Of a stretch of DNA of 64,000 nt, positions 15,142-63,918 are shown one piece after another; within the stretch, counting starts at the first letter, position 1; each line of letters begins with the position of its first letter. Location of the stretch: NCBI GenBank assembly GCA_022653695.1, contig JALCSW010000002.1, positions 342,605 to 406,604 of the forward strand. Reading direction: 5' to 3'. The position numbers were made by a program, and so were the translations under genes. The notes under the pieces were generated by a model. That model was not told the DNA's origin, searched no databases, and saw nothing but the letters and a program-made list of their open reading frames with translations. The DNA is from Bacilli bacterium. Lineage in GTDB: Bacteria; Bacillota_I; Bacilli_A; RFN20; CAG-826.

Positions 15142-15239
15142 GATTAAGCCTCTTTAAGGAAGTAACAACAATAGATTATGCCATGGCGGGAAGGGAAAGG
15201 AAACCACCCACGCGCGCGAAAAAGCGGTACACTAGAGCC

Positions 15240-16061
15240 ATGAAACGGAGCCTATGCGCCCTTGGGGCGATTTCCCTTCTTTGCCTGAGCGGCTGCTCGA
15301 ACGGCACGCCCTATTGCGACGCGAACGGGGAAATCGCGGAAACGGCCTCGACGTATCGCGAAGCGATGGTCGAGGAGAGGGCCTCCTCCCTGATCGCCCG
15401 GGCCCAAGCCGGGGAAACGGTCTATTTCTTTCACGCCTCCTCGACGTGCCCCGCCTGCTCACGCTACGAAAGCGCCATCGCCGCCGGGTTGGCGAAAACC
15501 AATCTCCGCGTCTCGTTGCTTTATCGCTCCAGCGAAGCGGGGTTCGACGAAACGGCCTATTGGGCCGACGTCAGCCTTCTGCAAGCGGCGTACCCGAGCG
15601 ATGAAGGGGGGACGACGGGCTTTCAGGACAATTACCCCCGTTTTTATCGCCTTCAGAAGGATACCTGCGAGATTCTGTCCTTTAACGCCTACGCCGACAG
15701 CGGGAATTCCTTTTCCTCGTACTTGGGGCGGGTTTCCAACCTCAACGGCCTCACCCATTTCCGGACCTACGAGAAGGCCGCCTCTTTCGCCGCGAGGAAT
15801 TCCTGCCCGCTTTACCTCTATGACGAGACCGACGCCGAAGCCTTCGCCTTTTATTTCGCGGAAATCCGTTCCCGGGGCCAAAAAAGGGAAACCCCCTTCG
15901 CCATCCTCGATTTCGCCGAGATGAACGATGGGCAAAAAACGGCCGCTTTGGCGGGCTTTTCGCTTGAGAGCTACGTTCCTATGATTCGTCTGGGCCAAAC
16001 CGTCCGCGCCATAAAAAGCGAAGCGGCTTCCGCCGCCTCGCTCGTCGCTTCCTACTACTGA
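15240..16061 (+). CDS. Lipoprotein with a thioredoxin-like CxxC motif
   Basis: Start at ATG 15240 (MKRSLCALGAISLLCLSGCSNG) with lipobox LSGC. CPAC in YFFHASSTCPACSRYE. TACACT lies 6 nt upstream of the ATG. The ORF-track start 15183 adds a basic, non-signal extension. Confidence 0.65.
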   Translation: MKRSLCALGAISLLCLSGCSNGTPYCDANGEIAETASTYREAMVEERASSLIARAQAGETVYFFHASSTCPACSRYESAIAAGLAKTNLRVSLLYRSSEAGFDETAYWADVSLLQAAYPSDEGGTTGFQDNYPRFYRLQKDTCEILSFNAYADSGNSFSSYLGRVSNLNGLTHFRTYEKAASFAARNSCPLYLYDETDAEAFAFYFAEIRSRGQKRETPFAILDFAEMNDGQKTAALAGFSLESYVPMIRLGQTVRAIKSEAASAASLVASYY

Positions 16062-22893: not shown

Positions 22894-23715
22894 TTATTCC
22901 TTGGCTGAAACCGGGCGAGGGCTCGGCCCTTCCACAAGGGAAGGCCCTTCCTCGGCCGGCTTCTCCTGAGCGATCCATAGAGCCGAGAGGCTCATAAAGA
23001 CCAGCGTCTGGACGAAGCCAGTGAATAAGTTGAAATAAAGATTGAGGATGCCCATCGGTATCGGAGCCAGGAAAATGGACGTCCACATATAAGTGCCGTT
23101 AAGAGGCACGACGCTCGAGAAAATGGCCATGCTGGCCTTGCCGAGGGCCCATTGGATGAGCCCGATGATGATGGTGCCGCTGAGGCAGTTGCCGAACATA
23201 CGGACGGCGGTCGAGATGATCGGGGTCCACATCGTGATGAGGTTGATCGGCAGAAAAATCGAAATCGGCTCGATATAGCGATGGAAATAATGCCAATGGT
23301 TGTATTTGACGGCGAAGAACTGAATCAAAATGAACATGATGATCGAAAGGCAAAGCGGGGCGGCGAGCCAATCGATGACGGAGGGCATGCCCGTGATGCC
23401 CCAGATGAAACCAAGGAAAAGATAGCTTGCGAGAGCGAGGAAATAGCCGGTCATCCTGTCCCAGCCGGGACCCATCATCCCCTCGACCCACTCGCCGAGT
23501 TTCTCGACGGCGAGCTCAACGACCATATAGGCGCCTTTGGGCCGCTCGAGATACAGTTTCTTCTTGTAGATGATCCGGGCGTGGACGCCCACCACGATCG
23601 CCACCACGATCAAAAGGAAAATGATGAGGAGGGAACTGAATAGCGATGCGTCGAGGTCCCACGACCACATGGACGCCAAACGGTCTTTGTATGTCATCGT
23701 GGTGGTCAGGATCAT
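22894..23715 (-). CDS. atpB: Fo ATP synthase a subunit
   Basis: Essential-Arg motif RMFGNCLSG, about 5-6 TM helices, and ATGA overlap with the atpI-like stop. C-terminal P/E-rich tail. Confidence 0.85.
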   Translation of the reverse strand: MILTTTMTYKDRLASMWSWDLDASLFSSLLIIFLLIVVAIVVGVHARIIYKKKLYLERPKGAYMVVELAVEKLGEWVEGMMGPGWDRMTGYFLALASYLFLGFIWGITGMPSVIDWLAAPLCLSIIMFILIQFFAVKYNHWHYFHRYIEPISIFLPINLITMWTPIISTAVRMFGNCLSGTIIIGLIQWALGKASMAIFSSVVPLNGTYMWTSIFLAPIPMGILNLYFNLFTGFVQTLVFMSLSALWIAQEKPAEEGPSLVEGPSPRPVSAKE

Positions 23716-24230
23716 TCCACTTCGCCTTCGGAAGAATCGCCTTTCGTTTCTTCGTCAGTCGGGGATAAAGTATGGATTTTGCTTTGCCCTTTTTCGCCAT
23801 GGAGGTTCGAAAGGATCAGCACGAGCGGCATCGGGATGATGGCGAGCATCGTCCCCCAGAACGACAGAAGATCCCAGCCCCCGAACCATTCCGGCTTGAA
23901 GGTGCAGATGGCGCTCACGACGAGGACGGCGATGTATAGCGCCATGCGCGCGCTCATGAAAAGAACCGATTTGACGGTCATTCCGCTAGGCGTTTGGCCC
24001 ATCAGCATGTCCGGGAGCTTGGAAATCGACCAATAGGAGAAAAGCGAGACGAGGGCCCCGGCCAGCCATCCCCAATTCCACATGCTGAGACGAAAGAAAA
24101 ACAAAGGGATCAGAAGGACGAACACGATGCCGTAAAAGGCGGCAAGAAGGACAAAGTCCTTCTTTATTGGGTCCATGCGAGCGAAGCGTTGGGCGAAGTT
24201 AAGTTTCGGTTCTTTCTCTTTCTGGTCCAT
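23712..24230 (-). CDS. atpI: AtpI-like small membrane protein (first gene of the atp operon)
   Basis: 172 aa with 4 hydrophobic segments, translationally coupled to atpB. The assignment rests on position and topology only. Confidence 0.5.
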   Translation of the reverse strand: MDQKEKEPKLNFAQRFARMDPIKKDFVLLAAFYGIVFVLLIPLFFFRLSMWNWGWLAGALVSLFSYWSISKLPDMLMGQTPSGMTVKSVLFMSARMALYIAVLVVSAICTFKPEWFGGWDLLSFWGTMLAIIPMPLVLILSNLHGEKGQSKIHTLSPTDEETKGDSSEGEVE

Positions 24231-36715: not shown

Positions 36716-38002
36716 TTAGCGGCGGGTCAGGATCCTTTCCAAGTCGGCCTTTTCCTTCGGGATGGCGGCGGTCAATACCTCGCAGCCGCCTTTCGTGATC
36801 AACAAATCGTCCTCGACGCGAACGCCTAGGCCCTTTTCCTTCATGTAGAGGCCGGGCTCGTCGCTGATGACCATACCCGGGGCAAGGGGCACTTTCTTGT
36901 ATTGCCGATCCAAGGGATTTAAGTAGGGGTCGTGGGTGTCGAGGCCGATGAAATGGCTGACGCTATGGAAATAATAACGGATGATGTCTTCCTTTTTGGA
37001 AATGAAGCCGGCGGCGAGGCATTCGCTCGCGAGGTATTCGACGGCCGCGTTCTGCAGATCCTCGATCGTGAGGCCGGGCTGAGCCATCGCGGCGATCATT
37101 TTGTTGCATCCGAGGACGATCGAATAGACTTTGGCCTGCTCGGGCGTGAAGCGGCCCGAGACCGGAATGGTTCGGCTCACGTCGGCGCAATAGAAGTTCT
37201 TCCTCGCGCCCAGATCCATCAGCAAAAGGCTGTTGGGCCTCACGGTGTCCATCGGGGTCGGGTAATGGAGGCAGGCGGCGTGGACGCCGCTCGCCATGAT
37301 GGTATAGAAGGAAAGGCCCTCGTAGCCGTTGTCGTCGTTGATGACGTGAAGGAATTCGTCGGCGAGCTCGTATTCCTTGACGCCCGGCTTGGCTTTCGCC
37401 ATGACCGCGGCGATGCCGAGTTTGGTCGAGGAGATGGCGCTTCGCAATTCGTTTATTTCGTTATCGCTCTTAACGAGGCGCAGCGTCGTGACGAGGGGAT
37501 AGAGATCCAGCACCTCGAGTTTTGGGAAAACCGTCAAAAGAGTTTTCTCGTATTCGTGGGTGGAGGTGGCCTCCGCGATCTTGATCTCGCGGTCGCGGTC
37601 CAAATATATCTTCCGGACGTCCCCGAATTCCTGAAAGGCCGGGTTGAGGATGCCGTTGATCTTGCCCTCGAACGATTCGGACATGAGGATGTTATGGATT
37701 CCGCTCCGCTCACGGGCCTCTTCGACGCTCAGGCGCTTGCCATACCATTTCTCCTTGCTTTCGTCGAAAGGAAGGATGAAGAGGAATTCCTTCGTCTCGC
37801 CCATGGTTTTGGCGAGAAGCAAGACGCTCCCCTCTTGGGAGATGCCGCTAAGATAGAGGAAGTTGCGGTTGATCTCAAAAGGCGCCTCCTCGTCGGCGCT
37901 GCTGACTTTGGGCACGCCGCCAAAGGAAACAAGAATCGAATCTTCGTCCATGGCCTCGATCAGCTTCCGCCGCCTATTCTCGAATTCGCCGCTGGGTATC
38001 AT
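36716..38002 (-). CDS. M24B Xaa-Pro aminopeptidase/dipeptidase
   Basis: Pita-bread fold metal ligands in context: DLGARKNFYCADVSRT, HSVSHFIGLDTHD, EPGLY, VRVEDD. 428 aa. Confidence 0.85.
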   Translation of the reverse strand: MIPSGEFENRRRKLIEAMDEDSILVSFGGVPKVSSADEEAPFEINRNFLYLSGISQEGSVLLLAKTMGETKEFLFILPFDESKEKWYGKRLSVEEARERSGIHNILMSESFEGKINGILNPAFQEFGDVRKIYLDRDREIKIAEATSTHEYEKTLLTVFPKLEVLDLYPLVTTLRLVKSDNEINELRSAISSTKLGIAAVMAKAKPGVKEYELADEFLHVINDDNGYEGLSFYTIMASGVHAACLHYPTPMDTVRPNSLLLMDLGARKNFYCADVSRTIPVSGRFTPEQAKVYSIVLGCNKMIAAMAQPGLTIEDLQNAAVEYLASECLAAGFISKKEDIIRYYFHSVSHFIGLDTHDPYLNPLDRQYKKVPLAPGMVISDEPGLYMKEKGLGVRVEDDLLITKGGCEVLTAAIPKEKADLERILTRR

Positions 38003-38615
38003 GCTCCGCCCTCCTCAGGATTTCCCGCCCTTCGTCTTTGCCGACGATCCTCACTTCCGGGGGCAAAGCCTCCGCGAATGACCCAACTAGTCTAGCATCT
38101 AGAAGCAAAGAAAACTTCACCGAAGAGGAAAAAACCTCATCGGTGAAGGAATATCCGCGCGAAAGGGCCTCGCTCCTCACCTTCATGTAGGAATCGTAGG
38201 GGCCTTCCAAACGCAGGCGGCAAGCGGGGACGATTTCCAAAAGGGAAGCCTTCGCGACGGCGGCCTCCCCCACGCCGAGATAGACGCGCTTCAGCCGGCC
38301 GAGCCCAAGCTTCGTGCCACCGAAATAGCGGACCGCGACGAGGCAAACGCGACGCAATCCCTTTTCGCGCAACAGATTGAGGAAAGGCAGGCCGACGCTC
38401 CGCGGCGGCTCGCCGTCGTCGCTGAAACCTTCAAGGCCCTCCGTTCGAAAGGCATAGCAGTAATGGGCGGCTTTCGGATAATCCTTCCGCGCTTTTTGAA
38501 GAAGGGCCGCGAAGGAGGCTTCGTCCTCGCAGGGGGAAAGCAAAGCGATGAAACGCGACGAAAGGACTTTGGACTCGGCCGAGGAAAAACCTTCGATCGA
38601 AAGCGGAAAACCCAT
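37974..38615 (-). CDS. yigZ: IMPACT/YigZ (UPF0029) family protein
   Basis: HYCYAF...SDDGEP...GLPFL...VAVRYFGGTKLGLGRL pattern. 213 aa. 29-nt overlap with the pepP start. Confidence 0.75.
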   Translation of the reverse strand: MGFPLSIEGFSSAESKVLSSRFIALLSPCEDEASFAALLQKARKDYPKAAHYCYAFRTEGLEGFSDDGEPPRSVGLPFLNLLREKGLRRVCLVAVRYFGGTKLGLGRLKRVYLGVGEAAVAKASLLEIVPACRLRLEGPYDSYMKVRSEALSRGYSFTDEVFSSSVKFSLLLDARLVGSFAEALPPEVRIVGKDEGREILRRAEHDTQRRIRE

Positions 38616-38625
38616 CGGCGGAACC

Positions 38626-41600
38626 TTATGGCGCCGCCAAAGCCGGGTCGGTGGCCGCGTCGTAGACGTGAACGCCGTTCCAGGCGTTGATTTTGTCGAG
38701 GAACGCGTCGCCTTCGTAGGCTTTGGCGAAGATGTAGGCCGCCTCGCTCGGGATTTTCATGAAGACGGAGCCCGTCCGGAAGAGATCGCATAGGCTTGAG
38801 ACCTCTTCGAAGGCGATCTGATCCGCGGTGAGATGGCCATAGAAAGGATACGAGGCCCCATGGTGGGCATCGTAGGGGTAAGTGTCCTCGGGATCGCCGG
38901 CGTCGCCGAGGGCGATGCGGCCCGCGGAGACGATGGTCCCGATCGATTTGACGCGATCGAGCAAAGTCGAAAGGCCGTTGGCCAAAGCGGTGCTATAGCC
39001 CGAAACGCCGGTTGAGATGATCGTCAAAGCCGAAGCGATCTTGGCGGGAAGGGCCTCGTAAAGGAGACGCGAGGAGTTGATGGCGGCGACAAGGCCTTCG
39101 ATCCTGCCCTGGGCGAAATCGTTATCGGTCGCGGAAACGGCGTTTCTGTGGTAAGCCCCGCCGACGTCCTCGTCGAATTCGTTGACGAAATAGCCGCTCA
39201 CGTCGAAAGTGCTGACTTGGAATCCGGAAACCCCACTGATGAAATCCTGCAGTTTCTTGCCGACGGTGGCTAAGGCCTGGGACTCATCCGTCCAAGCTTT
39301 CCGGGCCCCTGCGTCAAGGAGGTAGTCCTCCCCGCCCGTCTTGGACAGGAGGACGGTGAGGGAAGTTTGCCCGTTCGCCGAGTCGGCGGCGGCGCTGAGC
39401 TCGTCCATCACGTCCGAAACGCTTTGGCCCACGAAGGCCGATTCGCTGAATCCAAGGGCCTCAAGAGCCGCGTGCCGGTCGTTTCCTTCGTAAGGCGGAA
39501 GCGGGCTCGAACCGTCGCCGATCTCCGTTACCAAAGCGGACACGGCCGCCTCGGCTTCCTCAAGGAGGGCGCCGTCCTCTCTTTCCAAAGCCCCGCTAAG
39601 ATGGCCTATCCGGTTGATTTGCCTCTCAATCGCCACGGTATCGGGGTTGCCGCCGCCGTCGAGATAGAATTCCGCCTTCTCGAGCAGGTCCTCCATCTGG
39701 TTTTCGCAGGCGGTGAAGCCGTTGCCGTTGCGGATCGCGGCATTCTCCGGAAGCGAATTGAAGACGGACGATTCGGCGATTTGGCTCAAAAGCGGGTAGA
39801 GGAAATACTCCGGCGAGGCGGTGTCGATCTGGATGTCGCCCGCCGAAAGGTTCCCCGAAGCGCCGACGAGGCCGTACTTGTCGTCGAGGATGACGTACAT
39901 GAGGCCCGACATGCAGTCCGTCTCGAATTCGCGTTGCTCGGGGCTGCAGGCCCATAGGTAGAGGATGTTGGCCCCGGTGAGGGCGCTGCCCGCGCTCGCC
40001 AAAGCCCCAAGAGCCTGCTGGAAAAGGTGATACGTCAGGACCTTGCCGAACGCCTTGGAACCGCAGACGACCCCGAGGAGGGCGTCATAGTCCGTGGGGT
40101 TGATGAGGCTGATGTCGCTGCTGGCCTTGAAGCTATCGACGCCGCCGATATATTCGCATCGGCGCACTATTTCCTCGAAATTGTCGCATTCCGCGGCCCA
40201 CTTGCTCGTTTCGAAGACGGGGTTGGAGTATTCCCCCGTCGAATCGTCATATGTCCAGTAACGGTACTCGCCATCGCTGAAGTAACTGTCGTATCCCGTT
40301 TCCCCGGAACCCACGTAAGCGACCTTTTCGAACTCCTCGAGGAGGGTCGAATAGGTGAAGGCGGAAGCCTCGCTCGGGTTGGCGCCCGTCGATTCGTCGA
40401 TATCGCAGAAATACGCGCTTGGGCCCGCGGTTCCAAAGGAAGCGATCAACTTATCCTGGAAAAACCGCGGGAAAAGGTATTCCTTGCTTAGGATTGTGGT
40501 CCCGTCGGAGGCGTAGTTCGTCTTCACGAACATTTGCGACTGACTGAGCGTGTAAAGGATCTGCGCCACGCACGTCGGGTCGCTGTCGAGATATTGGATA
40601 TTGGAGAAATCGCCGATTTCGCTCGCGAAGCGAACAAGCGTGTCGAGGGCTCTCCCTTCGGTAGCCCAACTCGTCACGTTGGCGAACGTGACGTCGGAAA
40701 GATCCGCCGAGGACAGGCTCGTGACGACCGGCAAAACGGTCTTGTCGAGGACTTGGGAGAAGACTTTCCTCATGATGAAGGAATCGTCGACGTGGGAGAA
40801 AAGCTCCTCGAAATCGACGCCTCGAAGGGCGGCGATATCGAGGCTGGACCCCGAGTAATCCGACAAGGTGGAAACGAGTCCGCTGCTGACTAGCGAAACG
40901 ACGCAATCGACGAAGGCGTCAGCCTCATCGGCCGCATTGAAATCGAGGGAAGAGAGATATTCCTGCGTGATAAGGTAATCGTCGCCCATCGCCCCAAGGG
41001 CCTTGTTGACGACGAGGAGGAAGTTCGTGTTCTTGACAATTCCGCCGCCTTCTTGACTCACATCCGGGTTAAGGATCGGCGAGGTGGCCATGAACCTAAG
41101 GAGTTCCTTAAACTGAGTGGCATAGCCGGAGCTCGGATCGGACAAAGGCGCCAAAACGGCCTCAAGGTTCTTACCCGTCAGGGATCCGGAACTCGAAAGG
41201 TTCGTCACGAAGCGGATAAGGTCGCCGCAATCGCCGAACGTTCTCAGCAAATCGGCCAAGGACTGGCCCAAGCCCTCCTCCGGGAAGGTCGGATCGACCC
41301 ATCCTTCGCCCATGGCGGAAGAAAAGGTTTTCCCCAGCAAAGAGGAGAACACGCCTTTCATGATCTTTGGGAGGACGACCGAATCGTCGATGGCCCTCAT
41401 GGCGTTCTCAAGATCCGCCAACAGCCCGTCGTCGATGCCGTTGAATTTGCCATTGGGGTCGTAGTCGATGCCCGGCAAATCGCCATAATGCTTGATGAAA
41501 GTCTTGCCGATGCCACCGTCGACGGGGTTGCCTTCCCCGTCTTCGCCCGGAGCGACGAGGGCGTTCACGATTTTGAACATCGCGTTGAATTCCCCCTTAA

Positions 41601-43512
41601 ATTCCAAAGTCGTGTCAAGGGAAGCGATCGCCTCGTCCAAGCCGTCGACCGTGACGTCCATGGTCGAGGAAACGGCGCCGCTGAGAATCTTTAGCAGACG
41701 CGGCATCGCGTTGGCGAGGAACGTGCTGTCGAGCAGGCACGTCGTGCCCGTGCTCTTGCCGGTAACCGGATCGATGTTCGTAAGTTCTCCCGTCGTGGGA
41801 TCCACATCGCCCACGATCGCGCTTTCGAGGACCCGCGGATGGTCGAAGAGCAAATCGGAGACGTAGTTGTCGGTCGTTATCGTGTTGGCGGCGATGCGAG
41901 TCGCGATCTGCGGAATGAAATCGGCCACGCCCTCATCGGCGAGATTGCCGTTAAGATCGGCGATGGTGTTGTAAACGGACTTTATCTCCTCACCGAATTT
42001 GATGGAGGCATAACTTGCCGGCAAAGCGTCCGGAAGGCCGTCGCCGTCGTTATCCCATTCCGGGTTGCCGTTGCCGTCGGAATCGGATGTGTCGACGGAA
42101 GGCAAGAAGTCGGAGAGGTCGATCGAAGTCGAGTTCCGGGGCCCGGCCTCGACGAGGGACTGCGCGGATTTGCACGCCGTGACGTAAAGGGCCGACTGAA
42201 GCAGTTTATTGAGGAAGGCCCAGGAATTGGAATCCAGGTCGTCGAGGACCTTGTTGAACTTAGTGACATGGGTCTCGTCGAAAAGGGCGGCGATGCCATC
42301 GCCATTGAGCCCCACAGGGCTCTCCTCGTTCTCAGGATCGAAGAAAACGTCGATGATGCCGGCGTCTTGGATGTCCTTGACCAACTGGGCGAGGTTCCCA
42401 ATCCCGTCCGCCCAGTTAACGTGGGAAGTGTCGATGCCCTCATTGGTCGCGACATAAGACTCAACGGCTGGCAACGAAAGGACAATCTCCACGCCGATCG
42501 GGAGAAGGGCCGTGAAGAAATCGCTGTCGGCCAAAGCGTAGATAAAATCAGGCAGATAACGGCTGGCGGCGAAAGTGAGAAAACCCACCTCGTTCATGTT
42601 GCCTTCGTCGAAAAGCCCGCCCTTAAGGAGGGCGGAAGCCGCTTTCGTGACGTCGCCCAGCAAACCGCCGATGGATACCTTCGCGTTCGCGGCCGAATTC
42701 GCCACCGGGGCGCTCGTGAAGAAGTTGACGAGTTGCTCATCGAACGATTCGTTCTCGTCGTTGCGGGCGTAAGAACCGAAAAACACCTTTGAGAAAAGAG
42801 AATCGTCATAGGTGTCGAGGGCCGCTTTGACGGTCGAATAGGCGGGCCCGTCCGCCACTACGGAAGCCTCTTCGCCTCCATCGGCCCCTTCTAGGCCATG
42901 GGCGATTGAGTTGACTAAGGAAGTGAAGGGGGTGAGGAGCATCGCCATGAGAACGCCGACGATGGCGACTTCCTCGAAAGCGCTGGCGATCTTCCCTTTT
43001 TTATAAGAGGCCTTCCGCTGCTTTTTCGGAATGATGTGCTTGAAGGCGAGATGCCAGAGAAGAAACACGAGAAACGAGCCGAGAATAATGACGATGATGG
43101 CGTCCACCACCATCATGGCGAACTTGATGACGCTCGTGGCGAGGGCCGTCGCCAAAGCCGCGATCGAATCCGGCGAACCGACGTTGAAGGCTTTGGAGAC
43201 CTCCGACACGAAACTGTTTATCGTGCCGAAAACGGTGGTGACCGTGAAATCGATCGGCGTTCCGTTGACGTTCGTCGACAGCGAGGGTCCGACCCACTGG
43301 GCGATGTTCAGCCCGCCGACGGCGTTCGCCTGAGCCGGCAAGGTGGCGAAGGCGATGACGATGAGAATCGTGAAAGCGATGAGGCGATACGTCCCATACC
43401 GCCATCCGCGCAAAAGGCCGCGCAGGAAACCCAGCGCCAAAAAGACGACTATGGCCACGAATGCCCAAAGGAGAACCTGCGATTCGATTTGCACGATTTG
43501 GTCGATGTCCAT
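38626..43512 (-). CDS. Giant membrane-anchored acidic protein (1,628 aa), unknown function
   Basis: A single uninterrupted ORF. The first ~200 aa hold 4 hydrophobic helices, and the first two (LLWAFVAIVVFLALGFLRGLLRGW...) are reminiscent of CvpA-type domains. The remaining ~1,400 aa are D/E/S/G-rich and non-repetitive, with one DxDxDG-like motif (DNDGDGLPD). Confidence 0.8.
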   Translation of the reverse strand: MDIDQIVQIESQVLLWAFVAIVVFLALGFLRGLLRGWRYGTYRLIAFTILIVIAFATLPAQANAVGGLNIAQWVGPSLSTNVNGTPIDFTVTTVFGTINSFVSEVSKAFNVGSPDSIAALATALATSVIKFAMMVVDAIIVIILGSFLVFLLWHLAFKHIIPKKQRKASYKKGKIASAFEEVAIVGVLMAMLLTPFTSLVNSIAHGLEGADGGEEASVVADGPAYSTVKAALDTYDDSLFSKVFFGSYARNDENESFDEQLVNFFTSAPVANSAANAKVSIGGLLGDVTKAASALLKGGLFDEGNMNEVGFLTFAASRYLPDFIYALADSDFFTALLPIGVEIVLSLPAVESYVATNEGIDTSHVNWADGIGNLAQLVKDIQDAGIIDVFFDPENEESPVGLNGDGIAALFDETHVTKFNKVLDDLDSNSWAFLNKLLQSALYVTACKSAQSLVEAGPRNSTSIDLSDFLPSVDTSDSDGNGNPEWDNDGDGLPDALPASYASIKFGEEIKSVYNTIADLNGNLADEGVADFIPQIATRIAANTITTDNYVSDLLFDHPRVLESAIVGDVDPTTGELTNIDPVTGKSTGTTCLLDSTFLANAMPRLLKILSGAVSSTMDVTVDGLDEAIASLDTTLEFKGEFNAMFKIVNALVAPGEDGEGNPVDGGIGKTFIKHYGDLPGIDYDPNGKFNGIDDGLLADLENAMRAIDDSVVLPKIMKGVFSSLLGKTFSSAMGEGWVDPTFPEEGLGQSLADLLRTFGDCGDLIRFVTNLSSSGSLTGKNLEAVLAPLSDPSSGYATQFKELLRFMATSPILNPDVSQEGGGIVKNTNFLLVVNKALGAMGDDYLITQEYLSSLDFNAADEADAFVDCVVSLVSSGLVSTLSDYSGSSLDIAALRGVDFEELFSHVDDSFIMRKVFSQVLDKTVLPVVTSLSSADLSDVTFANVTSWATEGRALDTLVRFASEIGDFSNIQYLDSDPTCVAQILYTLSQSQMFVKTNYASDGTTILSKEYLFPRFFQDKLIASFGTAGPSAYFCDIDESTGANPSEASAFTYSTLLEEFEKVAYVGSGETGYDSYFSDGEYRYWTYDDSTGEYSNPVFETSKWAAECDNFEEIVRRCEYIGGVDSFKASSDISLINPTDYDALLGVVCGSKAFGKVLTYHLFQQALGALASAGSALTGANILYLWACSPEQREFETDCMSGLMYVILDDKYGLVGASGNLSAGDIQIDTASPEYFLYPLLSQIAESSVFNSLPENAAIRNGNGFTACENQMEDLLEKAEFYLDGGGNPDTVAIERQINRIGHLSGALEREDGALLEEAEAAVSALVTEIGDGSSPLPPYEGNDRHAALEALGFSESAFVGQSVSDVMDELSAAADSANGQTSLTVLLSKTGGEDYLLDAGARKAWTDESQALATVGKKLQDFISGVSGFQVSTFDVSGYFVNEFDEDVGGAYHRNAVSATDNDFAQGRIEGLVAAINSSRLLYEALPAKIASALTIISTGVSGYSTALANGLSTLLDRVKSIGTIVSAGRIALGDAGDPEDTYPYDAHHGASYPFYGHLTADQIAFEEVSSLCDLFRTGSVFMKIPSEAAYIFAKAYEGDAFLDKINAWNGVHVYDAATDPALAAP

Positions 43513-43620
43513 TTATCGATTATTTTTTAGGAACTCTAAAGAGTTTCCTTCGTCAATAAATTATGTTCTTCTTTCGCGCGGGAAAGCAATTAAAATATAC
43601 TTACGTAAGCAAGCGCGCCC

Positions 43621-44481
43621 ATGAAAAACCTTTTCACGAAAATCACATGCCCCGAGTGCGGGAAGGGATACGACCCCGCCGAGAGAGAATGCCCCCACTG
43701 CCACGCCCCAAACCCTTCTTACGACCGCGGCAATGGGTGGGATGAAGTCACCGTGACGAGCTTCGGCGAGGAGATAGCGCTTTTCCTCATCGGGTCGATC
43801 GGGCTGACCATCGTGGCGTTTTTGCTCTCCTATGCCCTCCAATCGATCGCCAAAGGAGCCTTCGCCGCCGAAGGGCTGAGCGGAGAAGGCCTCCATAGCG
43901 CCCTCGTCGCCTATGTCACGACCGCCTCCTACAGCGCCTATTTGAATCTGGGGGCCTATTTCATCCTCTTTATCGTCTTGCTCATCGTCCTCGGACGCAA
44001 CATCTACAAAATAACGGCCAAATTCAAGCAAAAAAGAACCTATCTTGGCTTTCTTATTGGCATTGGCATGATGATGATAACGGGCTTCCTTTCCTTGCTC
44101 CTATCCTCAAAAAGCAACGCCAACCAAACCACGGTGGAATCCGTCGAAGCCTATGCCCCGGGGGCTTCCCTTCTCGTCATCGGACTCGTCGGTCCTTTCT
44201 GCGAGGAACTCACCTATCGCGTCGGCCTCTACACCTTCTTGAAACGAATCAACTGGGTCTTTGCCCTCATCGTCACAAGCCTTGTCTTCACGTTCATCCA
44301 TTTCGACTTCCAGGCGGTTTCCTCAGTCAACGAATGGCGCAATGTTCCCGTTTATTTCACGATGGCCCTCATCCTCACTTTCACCTATGAGAAAATGGGT
44401 TTTGGGGCATCTTTCCTCGCCCATGCGACCAACAATTTCCTCGGCATCCTGATAACCATCATCGCCAGCAACATCCAATGA
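43621..44481 (+). CDS. CPBP-family intramembrane glutamic endopeptidase with an N-terminal zinc ribbon
   Basis: CPECG...CPHC ribbon, then TM helices carrying EELTYR, FIHF and HATNNF (the CPBP/Abi motifs). Confidence 0.8.
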   Translation: MKNLFTKITCPECGKGYDPAERECPHCHAPNPSYDRGNGWDEVTVTSFGEEIALFLIGSIGLTIVAFLLSYALQSIAKGAFAAEGLSGEGLHSALVAYVTTASYSAYLNLGAYFILFIVLLIVLGRNIYKITAKFKQKRTYLGFLIGIGMMMITGFLSLLLSSKSNANQTTVESVEAYAPGASLLVIGLVGPFCEELTYRVGLYTFLKRINWVFALIVTSLVFTFIHFDFQAVSSVNEWRNVPVYFTMALILTFTYEKMGFGASFLAHATNNFLGILITIIASNIQ

Positions 44482-45437
44482 CGCAAAACCGTTACCGCTC
44501 CCAAAACCTCAGCGAATTCTGGCTCAAGATCATCGCCCTCGTCGCGATGAGCTTCGACCATATCGGCGTTTTCCTTAACGATTACAGCGGATCTTTCGCC
44601 AACTCGGGAGCCGTCAGCACGACCGCCCTCGTCTTCCGCATCGTCGGCCGGTTGGCCTTCCCGCTTTTCGCCTTCATGCTCGCCGAAGGGCTCCGCCACA
44701 CCCACGACAAGGGAAAATACCTCATGCGCCTCTTTGACGTGTTCGCCCTTATTTTCGTCGTCGAGTTGGTTCTTTACGTCCTGAACCTCAACGGAATCGG
44801 GAACTTCGGGGTCCCTTCCTCCCAAATCTTCACCTCACTCGTTCTTTATGCCCTCTTCGCCTGCCTCGTCGAAAGAAAGGACTGGATGAGGTGGCTCACC
44901 GCCTTGCCCGTCGCCTACATTCTCCTATCCTACGCGGCGGACATCTGCACCCTTTATTACGCGAACGCGACCGCGGAGTCGGTCCGCTTCGCCCTCAGTT
45001 GGCAGAACTATTTCCCTCTGTTCGTCCGCGCCCAGTATTCGCTCTTTGGCTTTTTGGTTTTCCTTGGTTTCTACTACGCGCGGCCCTTCGCCGACCGCTT
45101 CGTCAAAAAAAGCCTGAGCCTCGACGAAAAAGGGTTGGCCGAATATCAGGCGACTTCCGACTATCAGCGGCTTCTCAACATCGCCGGAGCCACTTCCCTC
45201 TCGGTCGTGACGATTATTTTCTGGGGTCTCAGCTACATCGCCACCGAGGCGGCCCCTTACACGTTCGACGTCTACAAAATGGGACTCCAGACCTATGGGC
45301 TTCTCTCCGCTCTCCTTATCCTGTGCTACAACGGCAAGCGCGGCTACGACTCCAAATGGTTCCGCGCCTTCAACTATCTGTACTATCCGGTGCATATCGC
45401 TATCATCGCGCTCGTCTTTGCATTAGTATTCAATTGA
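44478..45437 (+). CDS. TraX-family membrane protein
   Basis: FWLKIIALVAMSFDHIG N-terminal signature and a polytopic 319-aa protein. ATGA overlap with the CPBP gene stop. Confidence 0.75.
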   Translation: MTQNRYRSQNLSEFWLKIIALVAMSFDHIGVFLNDYSGSFANSGAVSTTALVFRIVGRLAFPLFAFMLAEGLRHTHDKGKYLMRLFDVFALIFVVELVLYVLNLNGIGNFGVPSSQIFTSLVLYALFACLVERKDWMRWLTALPVAYILLSYAADICTLYYANATAESVRFALSWQNYFPLFVRAQYSLFGFLVFLGFYYARPFADRFVKKSLSLDEKGLAEYQATSDYQRLLNIAGATSLSVVTIIFWGLSYIATEAAPYTFDVYKMGLQTYGLLSALLILCYNGKRGYDSKWFRAFNYLYYPVHIAIIALVFALVFN

Positions 45438-45456
45438 TCGAAAGGAGATCAAGCAT

Positions 45457-45765
45457 ATGATTCAACACATCGACAAAGCCATCGACTTCGACAAAGCCAT
45501 CGCCAACCCAAAAGTGCTGGTCGATTTCTTCGCCACTTGGTGCGGCCCGTGCAGCATGCTTTCCCCTGTTGTGGAGAAAGTCGCCGCCGACCACCCGGAA
45601 CTGACCGTCGTCAAGGTCGACGTCGACCAAGCCCCCGAGCTCGCCGCCCGCTACAGCGTCTATAGCATCCCCGCCCTCTTTTACATCGAGGACGGCAAAC
45701 TGGTCGACAAGCGCGTCGGATACATAGACGAGCGCTCCGTCAAGGCTTTCTGCCGCCTCAAATAG
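45457..45765 (+). CDS. trxA: Thioredoxin
   Basis: WCGPC active site, 102 aa, AAAGGAG RBS. Confidence 0.9.
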   Translation: MIQHIDKAIDFDKAIANPKVLVDFFATWCGPCSMLSPVVEKVAADHPELTVVKVDVDQAPELAARYSVYSIPALFYIEDGKLVDKRVGYIDERSVKAFCRLK

Positions 45766-45862: not shown

Positions 45863-45939
45863 GGACCATTGGTGTAGCGGTCTAACATGCCTCCCTGTCA
45901 CGGAGGAGATCGGGGGTTCGAATCCCCCATGGTCCGCCA
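45863..45939 (+). tRNA. tRNA-Asp (anticodon GTC), CCA encoded
   Basis: Cloverleaf by hand: acceptor GGACCAT/ATGGTCC, D-arm GTGT-AGCGGTCTA-ACAT, anticodon arm CCTCC-CTGTCAC-GGAGG, T-arm GGGGG-TTCGAAT-CCCCC, discriminator G, CCA. Confidence 0.9.
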
Positions 45940-45942
45940 CTT

Positions 45943-46016
45943 GCAGGTGTAGTTCAGTGGCAGAACATCAGCCTTCCAAGCTGATTATGCGGGTCCGATT
46001 CCCGTCACCTGCTCCA
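45943..46016 (+). tRNA. tRNA-Gly (anticodon TCC), CCA encoded, non-canonical T-loop
   Basis: Acceptor GCAGGTG/CACCTGC, D-arm GTTC-AGTGGCA-GAAC, anticodon arm TCAGC-CTTCCAA-GCTGA, T-arm GCGGG-TCCGATT-CCCGT, discriminator T, CCA. The T-loop reads TCC where TTC is near-universal. Confidence 0.8.
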
Positions 46017-49551: not shown

Positions 49552-51072
49552 TCAGCCGATGGTCGAATAGAGATAGCCGGGGCCGTTGAGCGAGTCGATG
49601 AGGAAGGTCACCTTGTTGCTGCCGGCGGCCAAAGTCCTTTTGATGACGACGGGGCTCCCGCGGAATTGCTTGATAACCGTCGCGTCAGCGTAATAGTATC
49701 CACCCATATCAATGTCTTCTATCGTGGCCGTGTCGGGATAAAGATCGGCGGGAAAACCCGCGATGGCGACCGGCGAAAGCGGATCGCCCGTCACGGAATC
49801 GAGCTCATCGCAGCAAAAAGCGCTCGAGACGACGTCGCCTCCGAACCCGGAAACGGCGATGATGATCATCTTGTGGAACTTCTCGGTGATCGTATAAGCG
49901 TCGCCGCGGTATTTCGCCGTCTCCGCGGCGGCGGCTTCCTCCGTGACGCCTTTGGCGAGCTCCTCGCTGAAGAACTTAAGGGAGAACTCGTCATTCGCGG
50001 TCTCGTAAGCGGCGACCCACACGAAAACCGGGTCTTTCCTTTCGTTCATGGCGCCGATGTCGACCCAACGCTCGACCGGGACGCCCGAACGGTTGGCTCC
50101 TTTGACGAGGCAATAAAGTTCGTTGACCCGCTTCCCCGTAACCGCATCGATATGCCCATCGAGGAAAAGATCGCCCGCCATATGCTCGGAAATCGTTGGC
50201 AAAGAAGTGGCGGAATGGTCCGCGTCGCCGGTGAATTTGACGCCCGGGGCGAGGCTCGTGAACACCGCTGCGGAATACTCCTCGTCGGCGTTTCCGTCTT
50301 CGTCAAGATCCTCGAAATCGTCTTGGATCGTCCATCCTTTGAAATCGGAGACATATCCGTAATCCGGATGGCCGCTGAGCCCATGGCCCGTTTTGGCCTC
50401 GAATTCGGAGGCGGTGAGGATTGAGTAGTCGGGGCAAGCGGCCCCCACTTCGTCGCCAAAAGACACCGTTTGGCTGATCATTTCGTTATTGACGTCGCGA
50501 GCGTAATCGACCCCGTCCATGTATTCGAAGGCAAGGGCGAAAAGCCTTTCGGCAAAATGGGCGTAAACGCGAAGTTCTTTGTCGAGAATCGCGTAATGGC
50601 CCGAAGAAGCCCCTGCGCTCGCGGAGGAAACCTCTCCGCTCGAGGAAACCCCTTCCGCGCTCGAAACGTCGGCCCGAAGAAGCCCCGCCGCCGAAGCGGA
50701 AGACCCGGCCGAAACGTCCACTCCGTGGGCGGCGACGTATTCGGCGCTGATATTGTAGAGATCGGCTTTCTCGCCCCACGTGCCGTCGGTGTTTTTGAAA
50801 TACCAGCCATCGAAAACGTAATAATGGCCGACATCAGCCGTACGAAGGGACTCATAATCGTAAGCCGCGCCATAGGAAGCCTCGTCATGGAAGATAGCGC
50901 TTTGCCCGTCTTGGAAATAGGCGTAACCGCATTCCCTGACCGGATCGGCGTCGTCGAAATAACGGACGGTATAGAAGTTCGCGGTCGGCGCATAGGGCTC
51001 GCTCGCGTAGGAACAGCCGCCCAAAAGAAGGGCGAGGGCGGCGAGGGCGGTGGCGAGAAAACGCTTTTTCAC
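49552..51072 (-). CDS. Lipoprotein with Listeria-Bacteroides (Flg_new-like) repeats
   Basis: Start taken at GTG 51072 (VKKRFLATALAALALLLGGCSYAS, lipobox LGGC). Two xxFxGWxx repeat signatures (YVFDGWYFKNTDG, DFKGWTIQDD) and a Ser/Ala-rich spacer. The ORF-track start 51162 adds a non-signal extension. Confidence 0.6.
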   Translation of the reverse strand: MKKRFLATALAALALLLGGCSYASEPYAPTANFYTVRYFDDADPVRECGYAYFQDGQSAIFHDEASYGAAYDYESLRTADVGHYYVFDGWYFKNTDGTWGEKADLYNISAEYVAAHGVDVSAGSSASAAGLLRADVSSAEGVSSSGEVSSASAGASSGHYAILDKELRVYAHFAERLFALAFEYMDGVDYARDVNNEMISQTVSFGDEVGAACPDYSILTASEFEAKTGHGLSGHPDYGYVSDFKGWTIQDDFEDLDEDGNADEEYSAAVFTSLAPGVKFTGDADHSATSLPTISEHMAGDLFLDGHIDAVTGKRVNELYCLVKGANRSGVPVERWVDIGAMNERKDPVFVWVAAYETANDEFSLKFFSEELAKGVTEEAAAAETAKYRGDAYTITEKFHKMIIIAVSGFGGDVVSSAFCCDELDSVTGDPLSPVAIAGFPADLYPDTATIEDIDMGGYYYADATVIKQFRGSPVVIKRTLAAGSNKVTFLIDSLNGPGYLYSTIG

Positions 51073-51208
51073 AAGGATATTATCCCTAAAACGGAAGGCG
51101 ACGAAAAGAAAAAACGCGCATACGGGAGCCGAAGCGCGAAAAGAAATTGCCCACTCGCGCACACGAGGTTATACTATTTCAGCAATCATTTTGAGCGAGG
51201 AATCCTAA

Positions 51209-51715: not shown

Positions 51716-52144
51716 TTATAATCCCGGATAGCCTTTTTCTTTAAGGGCGGCCACCACCTCGTCCGCCACCGCCGGAAGGTCCTTGACGATGCGCTCGCCC
51801 CAGTAGCGGAGGACCGTGTAGCCTTCCTCTTTCAGTTTGGCGTTCACCTCGGCGTCCCGGGCGCGATTGCGTTCGATTTTCCTGACCCAATACTCCTTAT
51901 GGCGTTTGAGCGATTTCCTGGCGACCTCGAAATTCTTGCCATGCCAAAACTCGCTGTCGCAGAAAACGACGACCTTAAGGCCCTTCCAGGACAAATCGGG
52001 ATGCCCGTATATGTACTTGCTGTTGCAACGGTAACGGATGCCGCGCTTCGTGAGTTCGTGGCGTAACGCCATCTCGATTCCGGTGTTCTTACCCCGGATC
52101 CGCGACATCGTGTAATGGATCGTCTCTTCGCTCCGCTTCTCCAT
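51716..52144 (-). CDS. vsr: Very-short-patch repair endonuclease (Vsr family)
   Basis: Start at ATG 52144 (MEKRSEETIHYTMSRIRGKNTGIEMALRHELTKRGIRYR). GHPDL, VVVFCDSEFWHG and NRARD motifs match Vsr. The rest of ORF-track entry 51716..52507 is antisense to the GNAT gene. Confidence 0.8.
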   Translation of the reverse strand: MEKRSEETIHYTMSRIRGKNTGIEMALRHELTKRGIRYRCNSKYIYGHPDLSWKGLKVVVFCDSEFWHGKNFEVARKSLKRHKEYWVRKIERNRARDAEVNAKLKEEGYTVLRYWGERIVKDLPAVADEVVAALKEKGYPGL

Positions 52145-52192
52145 ACCCGACAATGATAGAGCAAAAACCCGAAAATGGGGTATAGTAAACGC

Positions 52193-52735
52193 ATGCTCCG
52201 CCTCACCCATGCCGATAGCAAGGACCTTCCCGCCGTCATGAAGCTTTTCCGGCGCGTCCGCGCCTCGCTCGCGGAGGAGGGCAACGCCATGTGGGAAGAC
52301 GGCTATCCCGACGAAACCGACTTCGAAAAAGACGTCGGCGGCCATTGCCTCTATATCGCCAAAAGCGGCGGCCGCGTCGTCGGTTCCGTTTCCGTCGGCT
52401 TCGATCCCCTCGCGGATTTCTTCCCCCTCAGCAAAGACAGCCGCAAACTTTTGGCCTTGCTCGACAAATGCTCGGCCAAGGAGGAAGACAGCTTGCTTAT
52501 CATCCACCGGCTCATGGTCGATCCCATGGATCGCCGCAAAGGCGTCGCGAGCGACCTCGTCGATTACCTAAAAGGCCTTTATCCCCATCGCCTTTGGATC
52601 TTTTCCGCGACCCCTTCCAACGCCGCGGCGATATCCTTCTACGAAAAGAAAGGATTCCTGAACCTGGGGCCCTACGACTTCGAGTTCGGCGCCTTCTCGC
52701 GGCAGATTCTTTTCTGCAGCCCCCACACGCGGTGA
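52193..52735 (+). CDS. GNAT-family N-acetyltransferase
   Basis: HRLMVDPMDRRKGVAS (acetyl-CoA loop) and FYEKKGF. Start taken at ATG 52193 (MLRLTHAD), 6 nt after TATAGT (52181-52186). The alternative ATG at 52175 would lie upstream of that -10. Confidence 0.75.
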   Translation: MLRLTHADSKDLPAVMKLFRRVRASLAEEGNAMWEDGYPDETDFEKDVGGHCLYIAKSGGRVVGSVSVGFDPLADFFPLSKDSRKLLALLDKCSAKEEDSLLIIHRLMVDPMDRRKGVASDLVDYLKGLYPHRLWIFSATPSNAAAISFYEKKGFLNLGPYDFEFGAFSRQILFCSPHTR

Positions 52736-62404: not shown

Positions 62405-62818
62405 TCAAAAGATGCCGCGCCTCATGATGGCGATGAGTTTATCCATGTCGGTCGAAAGGGGGTAATCGGCGAGCCGCGGGGGCGTGATCCAAAAGACCTC
62501 GCCCTCATCCCCAGGCGTCAAGGCACCTTCGTAGCGGTTCGTCCGGTAAAGGGCCGCCACGTGGCGCACCCCCTTTTTGGGTTCGTTCCATTCGTAGACG
62601 CCGACTTCCTCGATCTGCGAGACGGTCAAACCCGTCTCCTCCTTCATCTCGCGGACCACCGAGGAGGCCATCGTCTCGTCTTTTTTGACGTGCCCGCCCG
62701 GAAAAGTGAGGCCCGGCCAGTCGCTTTTCGTCCGATTCTCGACGAGAAAACTGCCATCCGCGCGGTAGACCATGCACATATTCGTCAAGATGACGCGCTC
62801 GTTCAGTTTCATACCCAT
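62405..62818 (-). CDS. NUDIX hydrolase (MutT-like)
   Basis: Nudix box GGHVKKDETMASSVVREMKEETGL. 137 aa (or 135 from the second ATG at 62812, which lies 8 nt after TAAACT). Confidence 0.85.
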   Translation of the reverse strand: MGMKLNERVILTNMCMVYRADGSFLVENRTKSDWPGLTFPGGHVKKDETMASSVVREMKEETGLTVSQIEEVGVYEWNEPKKGVRHVAALYRTNRYEGALTPGDEGEVFWITPPRLADYPLSTDMDKLIAIMRRGIF

Positions 62819-62904
62819 TGAGTTTAATCTTCCGCGCGTGCGAGCGAAAGGAAAAACCCGCCGAGGTTGCCCGAGCCATCGTTTTTTCGCCCCCTCCCGC
62901 GCGA

Positions 62905-63918
62905 ATGCGCCATAATAGACCCGTGATTTTCCGTTTGAACGAAGCCGACGAAAGGAAATTCGGGGAACTCCTCTCCGTTTTCGACGCCAACGTCAGAGCC
63001 AGCGAGGCCTTGAACGAAAAGATGAAGGAAGCCGACCGCTCCTTGCTTAAGGAAGCCCGGGTTTTGAGACCCGAGGCCTACCGCCTCGACCCTTATTCCG
63101 AATCCGTGAAACCCGCCCGGCGGAAGTTCGGCTCGTGGGAGCTCACCTACGAACGCTATCGGCCGCGTCAGGTTTTCCTAAGCGACGCCGTCGCCTCTCT
63201 CGGCGCCCCTTTCTATGCGGAAAAGAACCCGCTTGGGTATTTCCCGCGCCCCTACGAATACCTGTGCCTCAAGGAAAGGGGGCGCACGTGGATGAGCGTG
63301 ATCCCCCACGAGATCAACACCATGCGCGCGCCTCTTTCCCGAATGAAGGGGCGCGTCGTCGCGATGGGCCTCGGACTTGGGTATTTCGCGTTCCGTTGCC
63401 TCCTTAAAAAGGAAGTCAGCCATCTTACCGTCGTCGAGAAAGACCCGCGTTTGATCCGCGTCTTCCGCGAATCGCTCGCGCCTTTCTTCCCGAACCTCGG
63501 GAAGTTGAGGCTTGTTGAAGGGAACGCTTTCGACGAGGCGACGGTCGGCCCCCTGTTAGAAGAGGCCGACTCCGTTTTCTACGACACCTGGCACGACGAG
63601 GACGACGGCTTGGCGATGCTGGGCGAGGCCTACCGGGCGGAAGCAAGATGCCCCCATGCCCATTTCGAGTATTGGATCGAGGGGAGTCTGCTCGCCTATT
63701 ACCGCCGCGCGCTCATCGTTTTGCTCGACGCCGCGGACCACTACCCTGAGGAAAAAGAGGAGGATGACGAACTGACATCGGCCACCAAAGCTGCGCTGAA
63801 GGAGACGAGGTTCCGCTCCTTCCGCGACATCGTCTCCCTCCTTGACGACGCAAGCCTTAAGAGCCTTTTGGGGCGCCTCGCCAAAGAAAGAAGCGGGGGC
63901 CCGCTTATGCTAAACTGA
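62905..63918 (+). CDS. Class I SAM-dependent methyltransferase / spermidine-synthase-like protein
   Basis: VVAMGLGLGYF (GxGxG) and VVEKD (acidic end of strand 2). Start is uncertain: ATG 62905, or GTG 62923, which sits 6 nt after CATAAT (62911-62916). The ORF-track TTG at 62818 is unlikely. Confidence 0.6.
   Translation: MRHNRPVIFRLNEADERKFGELLSVFDANVRASEALNEKMKEADRSLLKEARVLRPEAYRLDPYSESVKPARRKFGSWELTYERYRPRQVFLSDAVASLGAPFYAEKNPLGYFPRPYEYLCLKERGRTWMSVIPHEINTMRAPLSRMKGRVVAMGLGLGYFAFRCLLKKEVSHLTVVEKDPRLIRVFRESLAPFFPNLGKLRLVEGNAFDEATVGPLLEEADSVFYDTWHDEDDGLAMLGEAYRAEARCPHAHFEYWIEGSLLAYYRRALIVLLDAADHYPEEKEEDDELTSATKAALKETRFRSFRDIVSLLDDASLKSLLGRLAKERSGGPLMLN

Follow-up and report, generated by a model that had tools for sequence, protein, structure and literature searches.

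A family of giant, acidic, predicted surface-anchored helical proteins in Bacilli of the RFN20 lineage

What does a bacterium with a reduced genome do with a protein of 1,628 residues? The question is raised by one gene in a 64-kb stretch of DNA from a Bacilli bacterium (contig JALCSW010000002.1; "the window" is this stretch as a whole), the remainder of which holds the ordinary housekeeping genes of a reduced genome, among them an F1Fo ATPase operon, PriA, Gmk, RlmN, PFK and ATP-binding cassette exporters. By far the largest gene in the window, it is a single uninterrupted, ATG-started open reading frame (ORF) at 38626-43512 on the minus strand, as had been recorded in an earlier description made from the letters of the DNA and their translations, here called the sequence-only reading. 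The answer that we favour, and consider about evenly poised between right and wrong, is that its product is a membrane-anchored and strongly negative helical fibre, which projects outward from probably wall-less, sortase-less cells and makes up or organises their outermost layer.

The length of the ORF, unusual for this genome, and the chimeric appearance of one related metagenome contig could both be taken as signs of an assembly chimera, a fusion of ORFs or a decaying pseudogene, but the chance of any of these is, in our judgment, vanishingly small. The protein is 100 % identical to GenBank MCI2111532.1 (P0041; LKK13_04220, "hypothetical protein [Bacilli bacterium]"), which is encoded on a 504-kb contig, and a gapless 94 % ortholog (L001) lies on a 238-kb contig of a different metagenome-assembled genome (MAG), UW_MP_BACIL4_1. 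Eight further homologs, of 1,528-1,681 residues, align with it end to end at 43-59 % identity, and composition is even across the gene. Comparison with L001 gave a Nei-Gojobori ratio of nonsynonymous to synonymous substitution rates (dN/dS) of 0.118 overall; by 100-residue windows it was low (0.02-0.17) in all of them up to residue 1300 and 0.21-0.35 over the C-terminal 330 residues. Because dN/dS is low over the whole length, and full-length collinear homologs of 43-94 % identity occur in independent assemblies, the ORF is, as judged by comparative evidence, a genuine gene under purifying selection, and the chimera and pseudogene explanations were excluded.

Neither is the gene an orphan, as it had been called. 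An initial protein search produced 32 homologs, mostly of 2,230-2,800 residues and about 28 % identity, none of them named, and a family profile made from residues 1-1100 of six relatives, searched against 1.84 billion representatives, retrieved 349 cluster representatives at an expectation value (E) of 1e-3 or lower and 192 at 1e-30 or lower, mostly 1,400-3,000 residues in length. All 20 of the family proteins whose database names were looked up are entered only as "hypothetical protein". Searches of Pfam, NCBIfam and the sequences of the Protein Data Bank (PDB) with the full giant protein gave noise only; similarly, Pfam on eight long homologs and 17 long representatives, and NCBIfam on three long homologs, revealed no common family, the isolated Pfam matches being a Big_3 domain in relative P0005 and one weak match to a domain of unknown function in each of three representatives. 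The suggestion that the window might hold a new protein family is supported, there being nothing significant in Pfam, NCBIfam, PDB sequences or the structural searches described below, and a search of the accessible literature, which took in genomics papers on RFN20, found no description of it. The sequence, although already public, is unannotated, and defines a sizeable dark family in which the anchor domain and a helical module of about 200 residues are apparently new.

The 146 full-length members among the sequences gathered range from 1,408 to 2,996 residues (median 2,244), and the protein of the window is one of the short forms. Over residues 1-1290 it is collinear with the first 1,200-1,300 residues of the long forms, which extend for a further 600-1,200 residues beyond the short-form region. 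It carries the features that mark membership of the family, namely the residues G32, G36, R166, K167 and P195, the DTYDNS and NVTDWxxEG motifs, the modules of about 200 residues and the position between the CPBP and yigZ genes. A separate observation concerns the C-terminal 12 or so residues of many long forms (e.g., P0017-P0026, P0030 and P0009), which are conserved and resemble F-S-Y-S-x-V-A-S-[IL]-I-x-A; this ending, which might serve for sorting or as a docking strand, is missing from the short-form subfamily, including the giant protein.

The long homologs also held the key to the architecture of the ectodomain (the part beyond the membrane helices), since they contain clear tandem repeats of 205-215 residues. 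A jackhmmer search started from one tandem unit found three to nine modules per family protein, and in the giant protein placed them at residues 699-888, 900-1140 and 1144-1293, with a partial one at 1471-1512. As a control for circularity, a hidden Markov model (HMM) was built from the distal tandem units of long homologs only; it matched the giant protein at residues 700-821, 900-1007, 1167-1280 and 1469-1512 with scores of 8.7-16.2 bits, where 200 shuffles reached 2.3 bits at most. Alignment with hhalign assigned residues 895-1100 to the module at 99.9 % probability and residues 695-895 at 81 %, and the region preceding them (the head) gave a weak match of 32 %. Because the distal-unit HMM scores above the shuffles and hhalign also detects the module, the protein is, on profile evidence, repetitive, its repeats having diverged. 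The sequence-only reading, which had called it non-repetitive, therefore missed cryptic repeats of about 200 residues that begin near residue 700; a simple self-BLAST of the giant protein also shows none, and they are seen only with the module profile. Module 2 contains the family-invariant N945, W949, E952, G953 and F995, and module 3 terminates in an SxVFNS...TAxE motif.

Modelling with AlphaFold2 (AF2) was performed on two overlapping tiles, each with an alignment of 25 sequences. The models are fairly confident: the tile of residues 1-1100 had a predicted local distance difference test score of 77.7 and a predicted template modelling score of 0.57, the tile of residues 800-1628 had 79.7 and 0.78, respectively, and the two agreed on 94 % of the secondary structure in their overlap. 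The ectodomain is predicted to be 58 % helix and 4 % strand. Foldseek searches, in which the queries were whole models of 829-1,100 residues, returned nothing at E<=0.001 for both tiles against the PDB and for the second tile against BFVD. The top PDB matches, all non-significant (E 0.04-1, TM-score 0.09-0.2), were transportin, Cse1, CRM1, FANCI/FANCD2, neurofibromin, beta-catenin and Nup192, and the best result of a PDB profile search with the alignment of residues 1-1100 was alpha-catenin (E 0.007 over 170 residues), taken as helical-bundle noise. Confident homology to a characterised family was therefore not found by tiled modelling, Foldseek or profile searches, and the solenoid and bundle matches may be read as a statement of fold class only. 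What the protein would share with HEAT/ARM solenoids and the rods of alpha-catenin and talin, top though non-significant matches, is a long array of stacked helices, but the HEAT/ARM repeat unit is shorter than about 200 residues, and karyopherins, beta-catenin and alpha-catenin/talin are eukaryotic and intracellular, whereas the giant protein is bacterial.

The ectodomain is above all acidic. The whole protein, in which A, L, S, G and D abound, has an isoelectric point (pI) of 4.19, every 200-residue tile after the membrane domain has a pI of 4.05-4.74, and across all members of the 146-sequence set the ectodomain pI is 4.05-4.66. An earlier description of it as rich in D, E, S and G captured the acidity (D+E 13.6 %, S 9.3 %, G 8.6 %), but the commonest residues are A (10.8 %) and L (10.3 %). 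Its cysteines are scattered, as had been noted; there are 13, all beyond residue 446. The membrane-proximal head opens with a short, low-confidence acidic linker (residues 210-218) and contains the family-wide motifs DTYDNSxFSKVFF, DFLP, CLLDS and PGIxFDPxG. Within it lies what had been taken for a thrombospondin-type stretch. One exact match to DxDxDGxxD, a motif of the type that binds Ca2+, is indeed present (DNDGDGLPD, residues 487-495; the pattern occurs in 108 of 20,000 shuffles), but the loop that bears it is specific to a subfamily (14 of 178 long family members). A thrombospondin type-3 repeat protein was rejected on these grounds, together with the lack of any match to Pfam TSP_3 in the giant protein and the single copy of the motif, which in type-3 repeats forms an array.

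At the other end of the protein, the membrane domain is the best-conserved part of the family, and the C-terminus the least. The four hydrophobic helices that the sequence-only reading placed in the first 200 or so residues were found by both hydropathy and AF2 (in about 205 residues), with predicted limits of 3-33, 37-56, 114-160 and 174-207, while strongly hydrophobic segments after residue 351 were absent by hydropathy. Between the second and third transmembrane (TM) helices lies a small sub-domain, predicted to be outside, comprising a beta-hairpin (residues 77-90) and a helix (94-108). In an alignment of 25 diverse sequences, G32, G36, R166, K167 and P195 never vary, and the predicted cytoplasmic loops FLRGLLRGWRYGTYR and LLWHxAFKHIIPKxxRKASYKKGK are almost as constant. 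Its first two helices, with the turn GFLRGLLRGW, had been likened to CvpA-type membrane domains (PF02674). Common ground with CvpA would be the four-helix membrane domain of about 200 residues and, following TM1, a turn that is basic and contains Gly, but here the four helices (about 207 residues) continue into a domain of 1,400 residues, and CvpA proteins are not known to have a giant ectodomain. Nor do profile searches sustain the likeness: Colicin_V had no match in the giant protein at E<=1 and none in seven family N-terminal domains at E<=10, the best score in any relative being that of P0028 (13.5 bits, E 0.074, vs. a gathering score of 29.3 bits), and the CvpA identity was rejected. VTT/DedA (PF09335) matched the isolated N-terminal domain at residues 122-204 with 19.3 bits (E 0.0017); this identity was also rejected, as only two of the seven N-terminal domains matched, with a best E of 1.4e-4, below the gathering score of 33.9 bits.

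These sub-threshold matches (the VTT/DedA pair, of 19 bits at best, and the one to Colicin_V), the fact that no other part is as conserved as the membrane domain with its cytoplasmic loops, and the constant company of two polytopic membrane enzymes, CPBP and TraX, are what a quite different reading would explain, in which the membrane domain is the functional core (a small channel, a flippase-like or CvpA/DedA-like module, or a hub for cytoplasmic partners) and the ectodomain is accessory or regulatory. We think it improbable: no profile match reaches its curated threshold, four helices alone rarely form a transporter, and about 85 % of the protein is ectodomain (some 1,400 residues) under purifying selection, contrary to what would be expected of a mere appendage.

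Which side of the membrane the ectodomain occupies was addressed through charge. In the 146 members, the median net charge of the loop between TM1 and TM2 is +3 and of that between TM3 and TM4 is +7, and the N-terminus, the loop between TM2 and TM3 and the segment after TM4 are negative. From the positive-inside rule, the N-terminus is predicted to lie outside the cell, as is the giant C-terminal domain. An outside ectodomain has independent support from the relative P0005, at whose end is an Ig-like domain, Big_3 (E 7.8e-10), of a kind that belongs to secreted and surface proteins. The outward-facing large domain that had been proposed at the outset hence has support from family-wide charge and from P0005. 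TM4 and its basic leader look like an uncleaved signal-anchor; cleavage by signal peptidase after TM4 (SIA|HG) was considered and dropped, because the -3/-1 positions are unconserved in the family alignment. Two other classes of surface attachment were rejected: the sortase-anchored (LPXTG) class, as there is no [LS]Px[TSA][GANS] sorting signal anywhere in the giant protein and its C-terminus (...DAATDPALAAP) lacks the hydrophobic tail that this class would need, and surface lipoproteins of the Mollicute type, as there is no lipobox in its first 60 residues, the first Cys being residue 447.

It is in regard to topology that a cytoplasmic location has to be weighed, in which the acidic helical part would be tethered to the membrane from within and serve as a scaffold, in the manner of the giant cytoskeletal proteins of some mycoplasmas. 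Alpha-solenoid and helical-bundle folds are mostly intracellular, the best non-significant matches are of that kind (karyopherins, FANCI, neurofibromin and alpha-catenin, the last at E 0.007), and wall-less bacteria need internal determinants of shape. Opposed to this is the positive-inside rule, strongly and consistently across the 146 members, as are the AF2 models, which have four membrane helices and not three or five (helix 114-160 being continuous), and the Big_3 domain at the end of one relative; we regard an internal scaffold as very unlikely.

The bearing of these findings on cell biology comes from the host lineage. The MAG with the 94 % ortholog, UW_MP_BACIL4_1, has been classified as Bacilli; RFN20; CAG-826; UBA4951, its genome measuring about 1.6 Mb (PMC9302107), and a comparative study predicts that the RFN20 families CAG-826 and CAG-288 have no peptidoglycan, that its loss in several RFN20 families was independent of that in mycoplasmas, and reports sortases to be absent from RFN20 (PMC10868615). 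The early impression of a streamlined, possibly wall-less lineage is supported by this placement. In such cells, the four-helix N-terminal domain, with both of its ends outside, would anchor the protein in the cytoplasmic membrane, and TM4 with its strongly basic preceding loop (KHIIPKKQRKASYKKGK) would act as the signal-anchor that exports the remaining 1,400 or so residues. The exported part would consist of the conserved membrane-proximal head and then the very acidic chain of helical modules, whose number, three to nine between species, may set how far the protein projects. On cells that have neither wall nor sortases, an outer coat of this kind could serve as a spacer or protective layer, possibly with binding functions at its variable distal end, and the conserved cytoplasmic loops might tie it to partners inside the cell.

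Several considerations weigh against this proposal of an outer helical fibre. The topology is derived from the charge rule and one accessory domain in one relative; the elongated shape is suggested by the repeat architecture and by solenoid-like Foldseek matches that are non-significant (E >= 0.04, TM-score <= 0.16); the link to the host lineage comes from the one relative with a stated taxonomy (RFN20; CAG-826); the constancy of the neighbourhood may mean no more than that the genome backbone is stable; and the membrane domain and cytoplasmic loops are so strongly conserved as to suggest a role beyond that of a mere anchor. The step from an outside modular helical protein to a coat, spacer or adhesin is our inference, and the function of scaffold, adhesin or envelope organiser suggested by the sequence-only reading fits the evidence.

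An adhesin in the strict sense, a colonisation factor rather than a structural protein, would use the helical stalk to hold out a distal region that binds host mucus, feed particles or other cells; we consider it unlikely. The acidic modular domain is predicted to be outside, the distal end differs between members in both length and sequence, the number of modules is variable, constraint is relaxed at the C-terminus, and Big_3 stands at the tip of one relative. Yet the gene has one fixed position in every locus compared, whereas adhesin genes are typically patchy in distribution, multi-copy or phase-variable, Pfam found no known binding domain in the giant protein or 17 long relatives, and purifying selection extends along the whole protein. 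Repeat tracts and switching signals were not noticed, though no search was aimed at them. A bolder version of the coat proposal can also be formulated, in which it is chiefly this family that bears the load of, or organises, the envelope of RFN20 cells deficient in peptidoglycan. It would be a protein exoskeleton or a scaffold for the glycocalyx, and would have come with wall loss or made it possible; its conserved cytoplasmic loops would be coupled to the machinery of division or shape, and its maturation would depend on the adjacent CPBP, TraX (acyltransferase-like) and thioredoxin. This we put forward as a long shot.

As a kind, i.e., a giant TM-anchored repetitive surface protein in a wall-less bacterium, the protein would have precedents among the Mollicutes. 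Gli349, Gli521 and Gli123 of Mycoplasma mobile are giant surface proteins of wall-less relatives of the Bacilli; they too are very large and lineage-restricted, are anchored by terminal TM segments and form elongated surface projections. The differences are that the present family has no detectable homology to profile libraries or the PDB, gives no sign of a role in motility, has a four-helix N-terminal anchor and helical modules of about 200 residues, and is represented by one gene rather than a multi-gene machinery, the gene context (yigZ, pepP, CPBP, TraX) containing no second giant gene. A polytopic anchor with a long, mainly helical extracellular projection, as predicted here, is also a property of the YhgE/Pip, EsaA and YueB-type membrane proteins of Gram-positive bacteria. 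Their ectodomain is flanked by TM1 on one side and by a C-terminal TM bundle on the other; in the giant protein, all four helices precede it. Membership of the YhgE/Pip/EsaA group was rejected on that ground and because those families have no Pfam or NCBIfam match in the giant protein, and a Foldseek match to an ESX-5 membrane-complex chain (7np7_D4) was non-significant (E 1.7).

RFN20 are common, uncultured bacteria of gut, rumen and fermenter communities, and a protein predicted to expose some 1,400-2,800 residues of acidic helical structure in RFN20-type Bacilli has a broader relevance. If it proves to be a coat or the main adhesin, it would provide the first handle on RFN20 envelope biology, a candidate target for antibodies or cell sorting toward enrichment, and for the protein-family catalogues, an apparently new helical module of about 200 residues and a new four-helix anchor domain. 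If it is merely a lineage-specific hypothetical surface protein, the gain would be the better annotation of a few hundred dark sequences.

Table 1. Features of the giant gene and its immediate surroundings, in window coordinates.
Feature	Coordinates	Strand	Description and basis
Whole gene	38626..43512	-	1,628 codons + stop; member of an unnamed family of giant, predicted membrane-anchored, acidic alpha-helical proteins
N-terminal membrane domain, aa 1-207	42892..43512	-	Four TM helices + small sub-domain predicted outside; hydropathy, AF2
Membrane-proximal head of ectodomain, aa 208-695	41428..42891	-	Acidic, mostly helical, conserved family-wide; alignments, AF2
DxDxDG loop, aa 474-495	42028..42093	-	DSDGNG...DNDGDGLPD; AF2 coil
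Repeat module 1, aa ~699-888	40849..41418	-	jackhmmer; distal-unit HMM i-E 7.8e-5; hhalign 81 %, E 1.2e-5
Repeat module 2, aa ~900-1140	40093..40815	-	jackhmmer, distal-unit HMM; hhalign 99.9 %, E 5e-34
Repeat module 3, aa ~1144-1293	39634..40083	-	jackhmmer, distal-unit HMM; collinear with long homologs to ~aa 1290
Variable linker, aa ~1294-1400	39313..39633	-	Poorly conserved; relaxed constraint, dN/dS 0.34 for aa 1301-1400
C-terminal helical bundle, aa ~1401-1628	38629..39312	-	Partial fourth module aa 1469-1512; dN/dS 0.2-0.35
yigZ/Impact_N (37974-38615) + pepP (36716-38002)	36716..38615	-	Pfam; directly downstream, gaps 10 and -29 nt
Divergent intergenic region shared with CPBP gene	43513..43620	.	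108 bp; presumed promoter region; no strong Shine-Dalgarno visible
Divergent unit	43621..45765	+	CPBP/Rce1-like intramembrane protease 43621-44481, TraX 44478-45437, thioredoxin 45457-45765 (Pfam)

The giant gene is the first of a tightly packed, co-directional minus-strand string of 15,320 bp, with gaps of -29 to +27 nt, in agreement with the 15 kb estimated earlier. It is followed by genes that Pfam assigns to YigZ/Impact_N, PepP, FGGY kinase, AddB, AddA and DUF5677, with the gene of a small membrane protein between those of PepP and the kinase, so that the neighbours named from sequence (yigZ, pepP, small TM, glpK, addB and addA, and the divergent CPBP, TraX and trxA) were correctly identified. 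Scans for consensus promoters and terminators around the giant gene found nothing above shuffles, with no promoter match in 43513-43620. The CPBP/Rce1-like protease begins with a Cys-x2-Cys Zn-ribbon-like stretch (MKNLFTKITCPECGKGYDP). Directly downstream of trxA, tRNA-Asp(GTC) and tRNA-Gly(TCC) are found 3 nt apart (45863-46016, plus strand), the tRNA and Rfam scans giving nothing else.

Comparison was extended to 31 loci with GC contents of 32-57 %, in which the identity of the giant protein (best tblastn segment) is 24-93 %. The order CPBP-TraX-Trx / giant-YigZ-PepP is kept in every one of them wherever the flank is present, and so the giant gene is a single gene, fixed in place and inherited vertically; the synteny in related genomes thus places it consistently between CPBP-TraX-Trx and yigZ-pepP. 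Across the non-conspecific loci, identity is 25-59 % for the giant protein, 60-88 % for GlpK and 41-80 % for PepP, and the giant protein diverges at about the rate of CPBP, TraX, YigZ and AddAB and faster than GlpK and PepP. A functional link of CPBP, TraX or thioredoxin to the giant protein, for example in its processing or acylation, is possible. In one locus (L002 8822-9799, JGI contig Ga0574372_01256) the divergent gap that separates CPBP from the giant gene contains an inserted transposase gene of the IS1595 family. On the 776-kb contig Ga0183098_10020, the Trx-TraX-CPBP / giant-YigZ-PepP-GlpK-AddB block is present twice (L011, 607932-631177, and L031, 51044-74031), and the copies differ in their divergence from the window (PepP 78 % vs. 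60 %, giant protein 52 % vs. 27 %). Because an entire housekeeping block is duplicated at unequal divergence, paralogy was rejected, and this looks like a chimeric or concatenated contig from two related genomes.

Elsewhere in the window, six ORFs of 172-536 residues have no Pfam match at E<=1e-5, namely 49552-51162 (-), 62818-63918 (+), 15183-16061 (+), 584-1276 (-), 6017-6559 (-) and 23712-24230 (-); the one of 536 residues, with a GTG start, is the largest unannotated ORF after the giant gene. The sole Pfam match of a 628-residue ORF with a TTG start (12828-14714, minus strand) is a C-terminal VanZ-like domain (E 2.3e-7), its first 500 or so residues being unannotated, and a 263-residue ORF with a GTG start (51716-52507, minus strand) has a Vsr mismatch endonuclease domain at residues 129-194, preceded by about 128 residues that have no Pfam match. 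An NFACT_N (RqcH-like) ORF of 476 residues (10607-12037, plus strand) overlaps an APH/choline-kinase-like ORF of 414 residues (11581-12825, plus strand) by about 450 nt in another frame; one start has probably been mis-called, or there is a frameshift. Lastly, a Ser/Thr protein kinase ORF of 343 residues (1965-2996, minus strand), which adjoins a PP2C phosphatase (2827-3672, minus strand), has a kinase domain without room for the TM and PASTA extension that PrkC of Firmicutes usually carries, and this short form fits a lineage without peptidoglycan.

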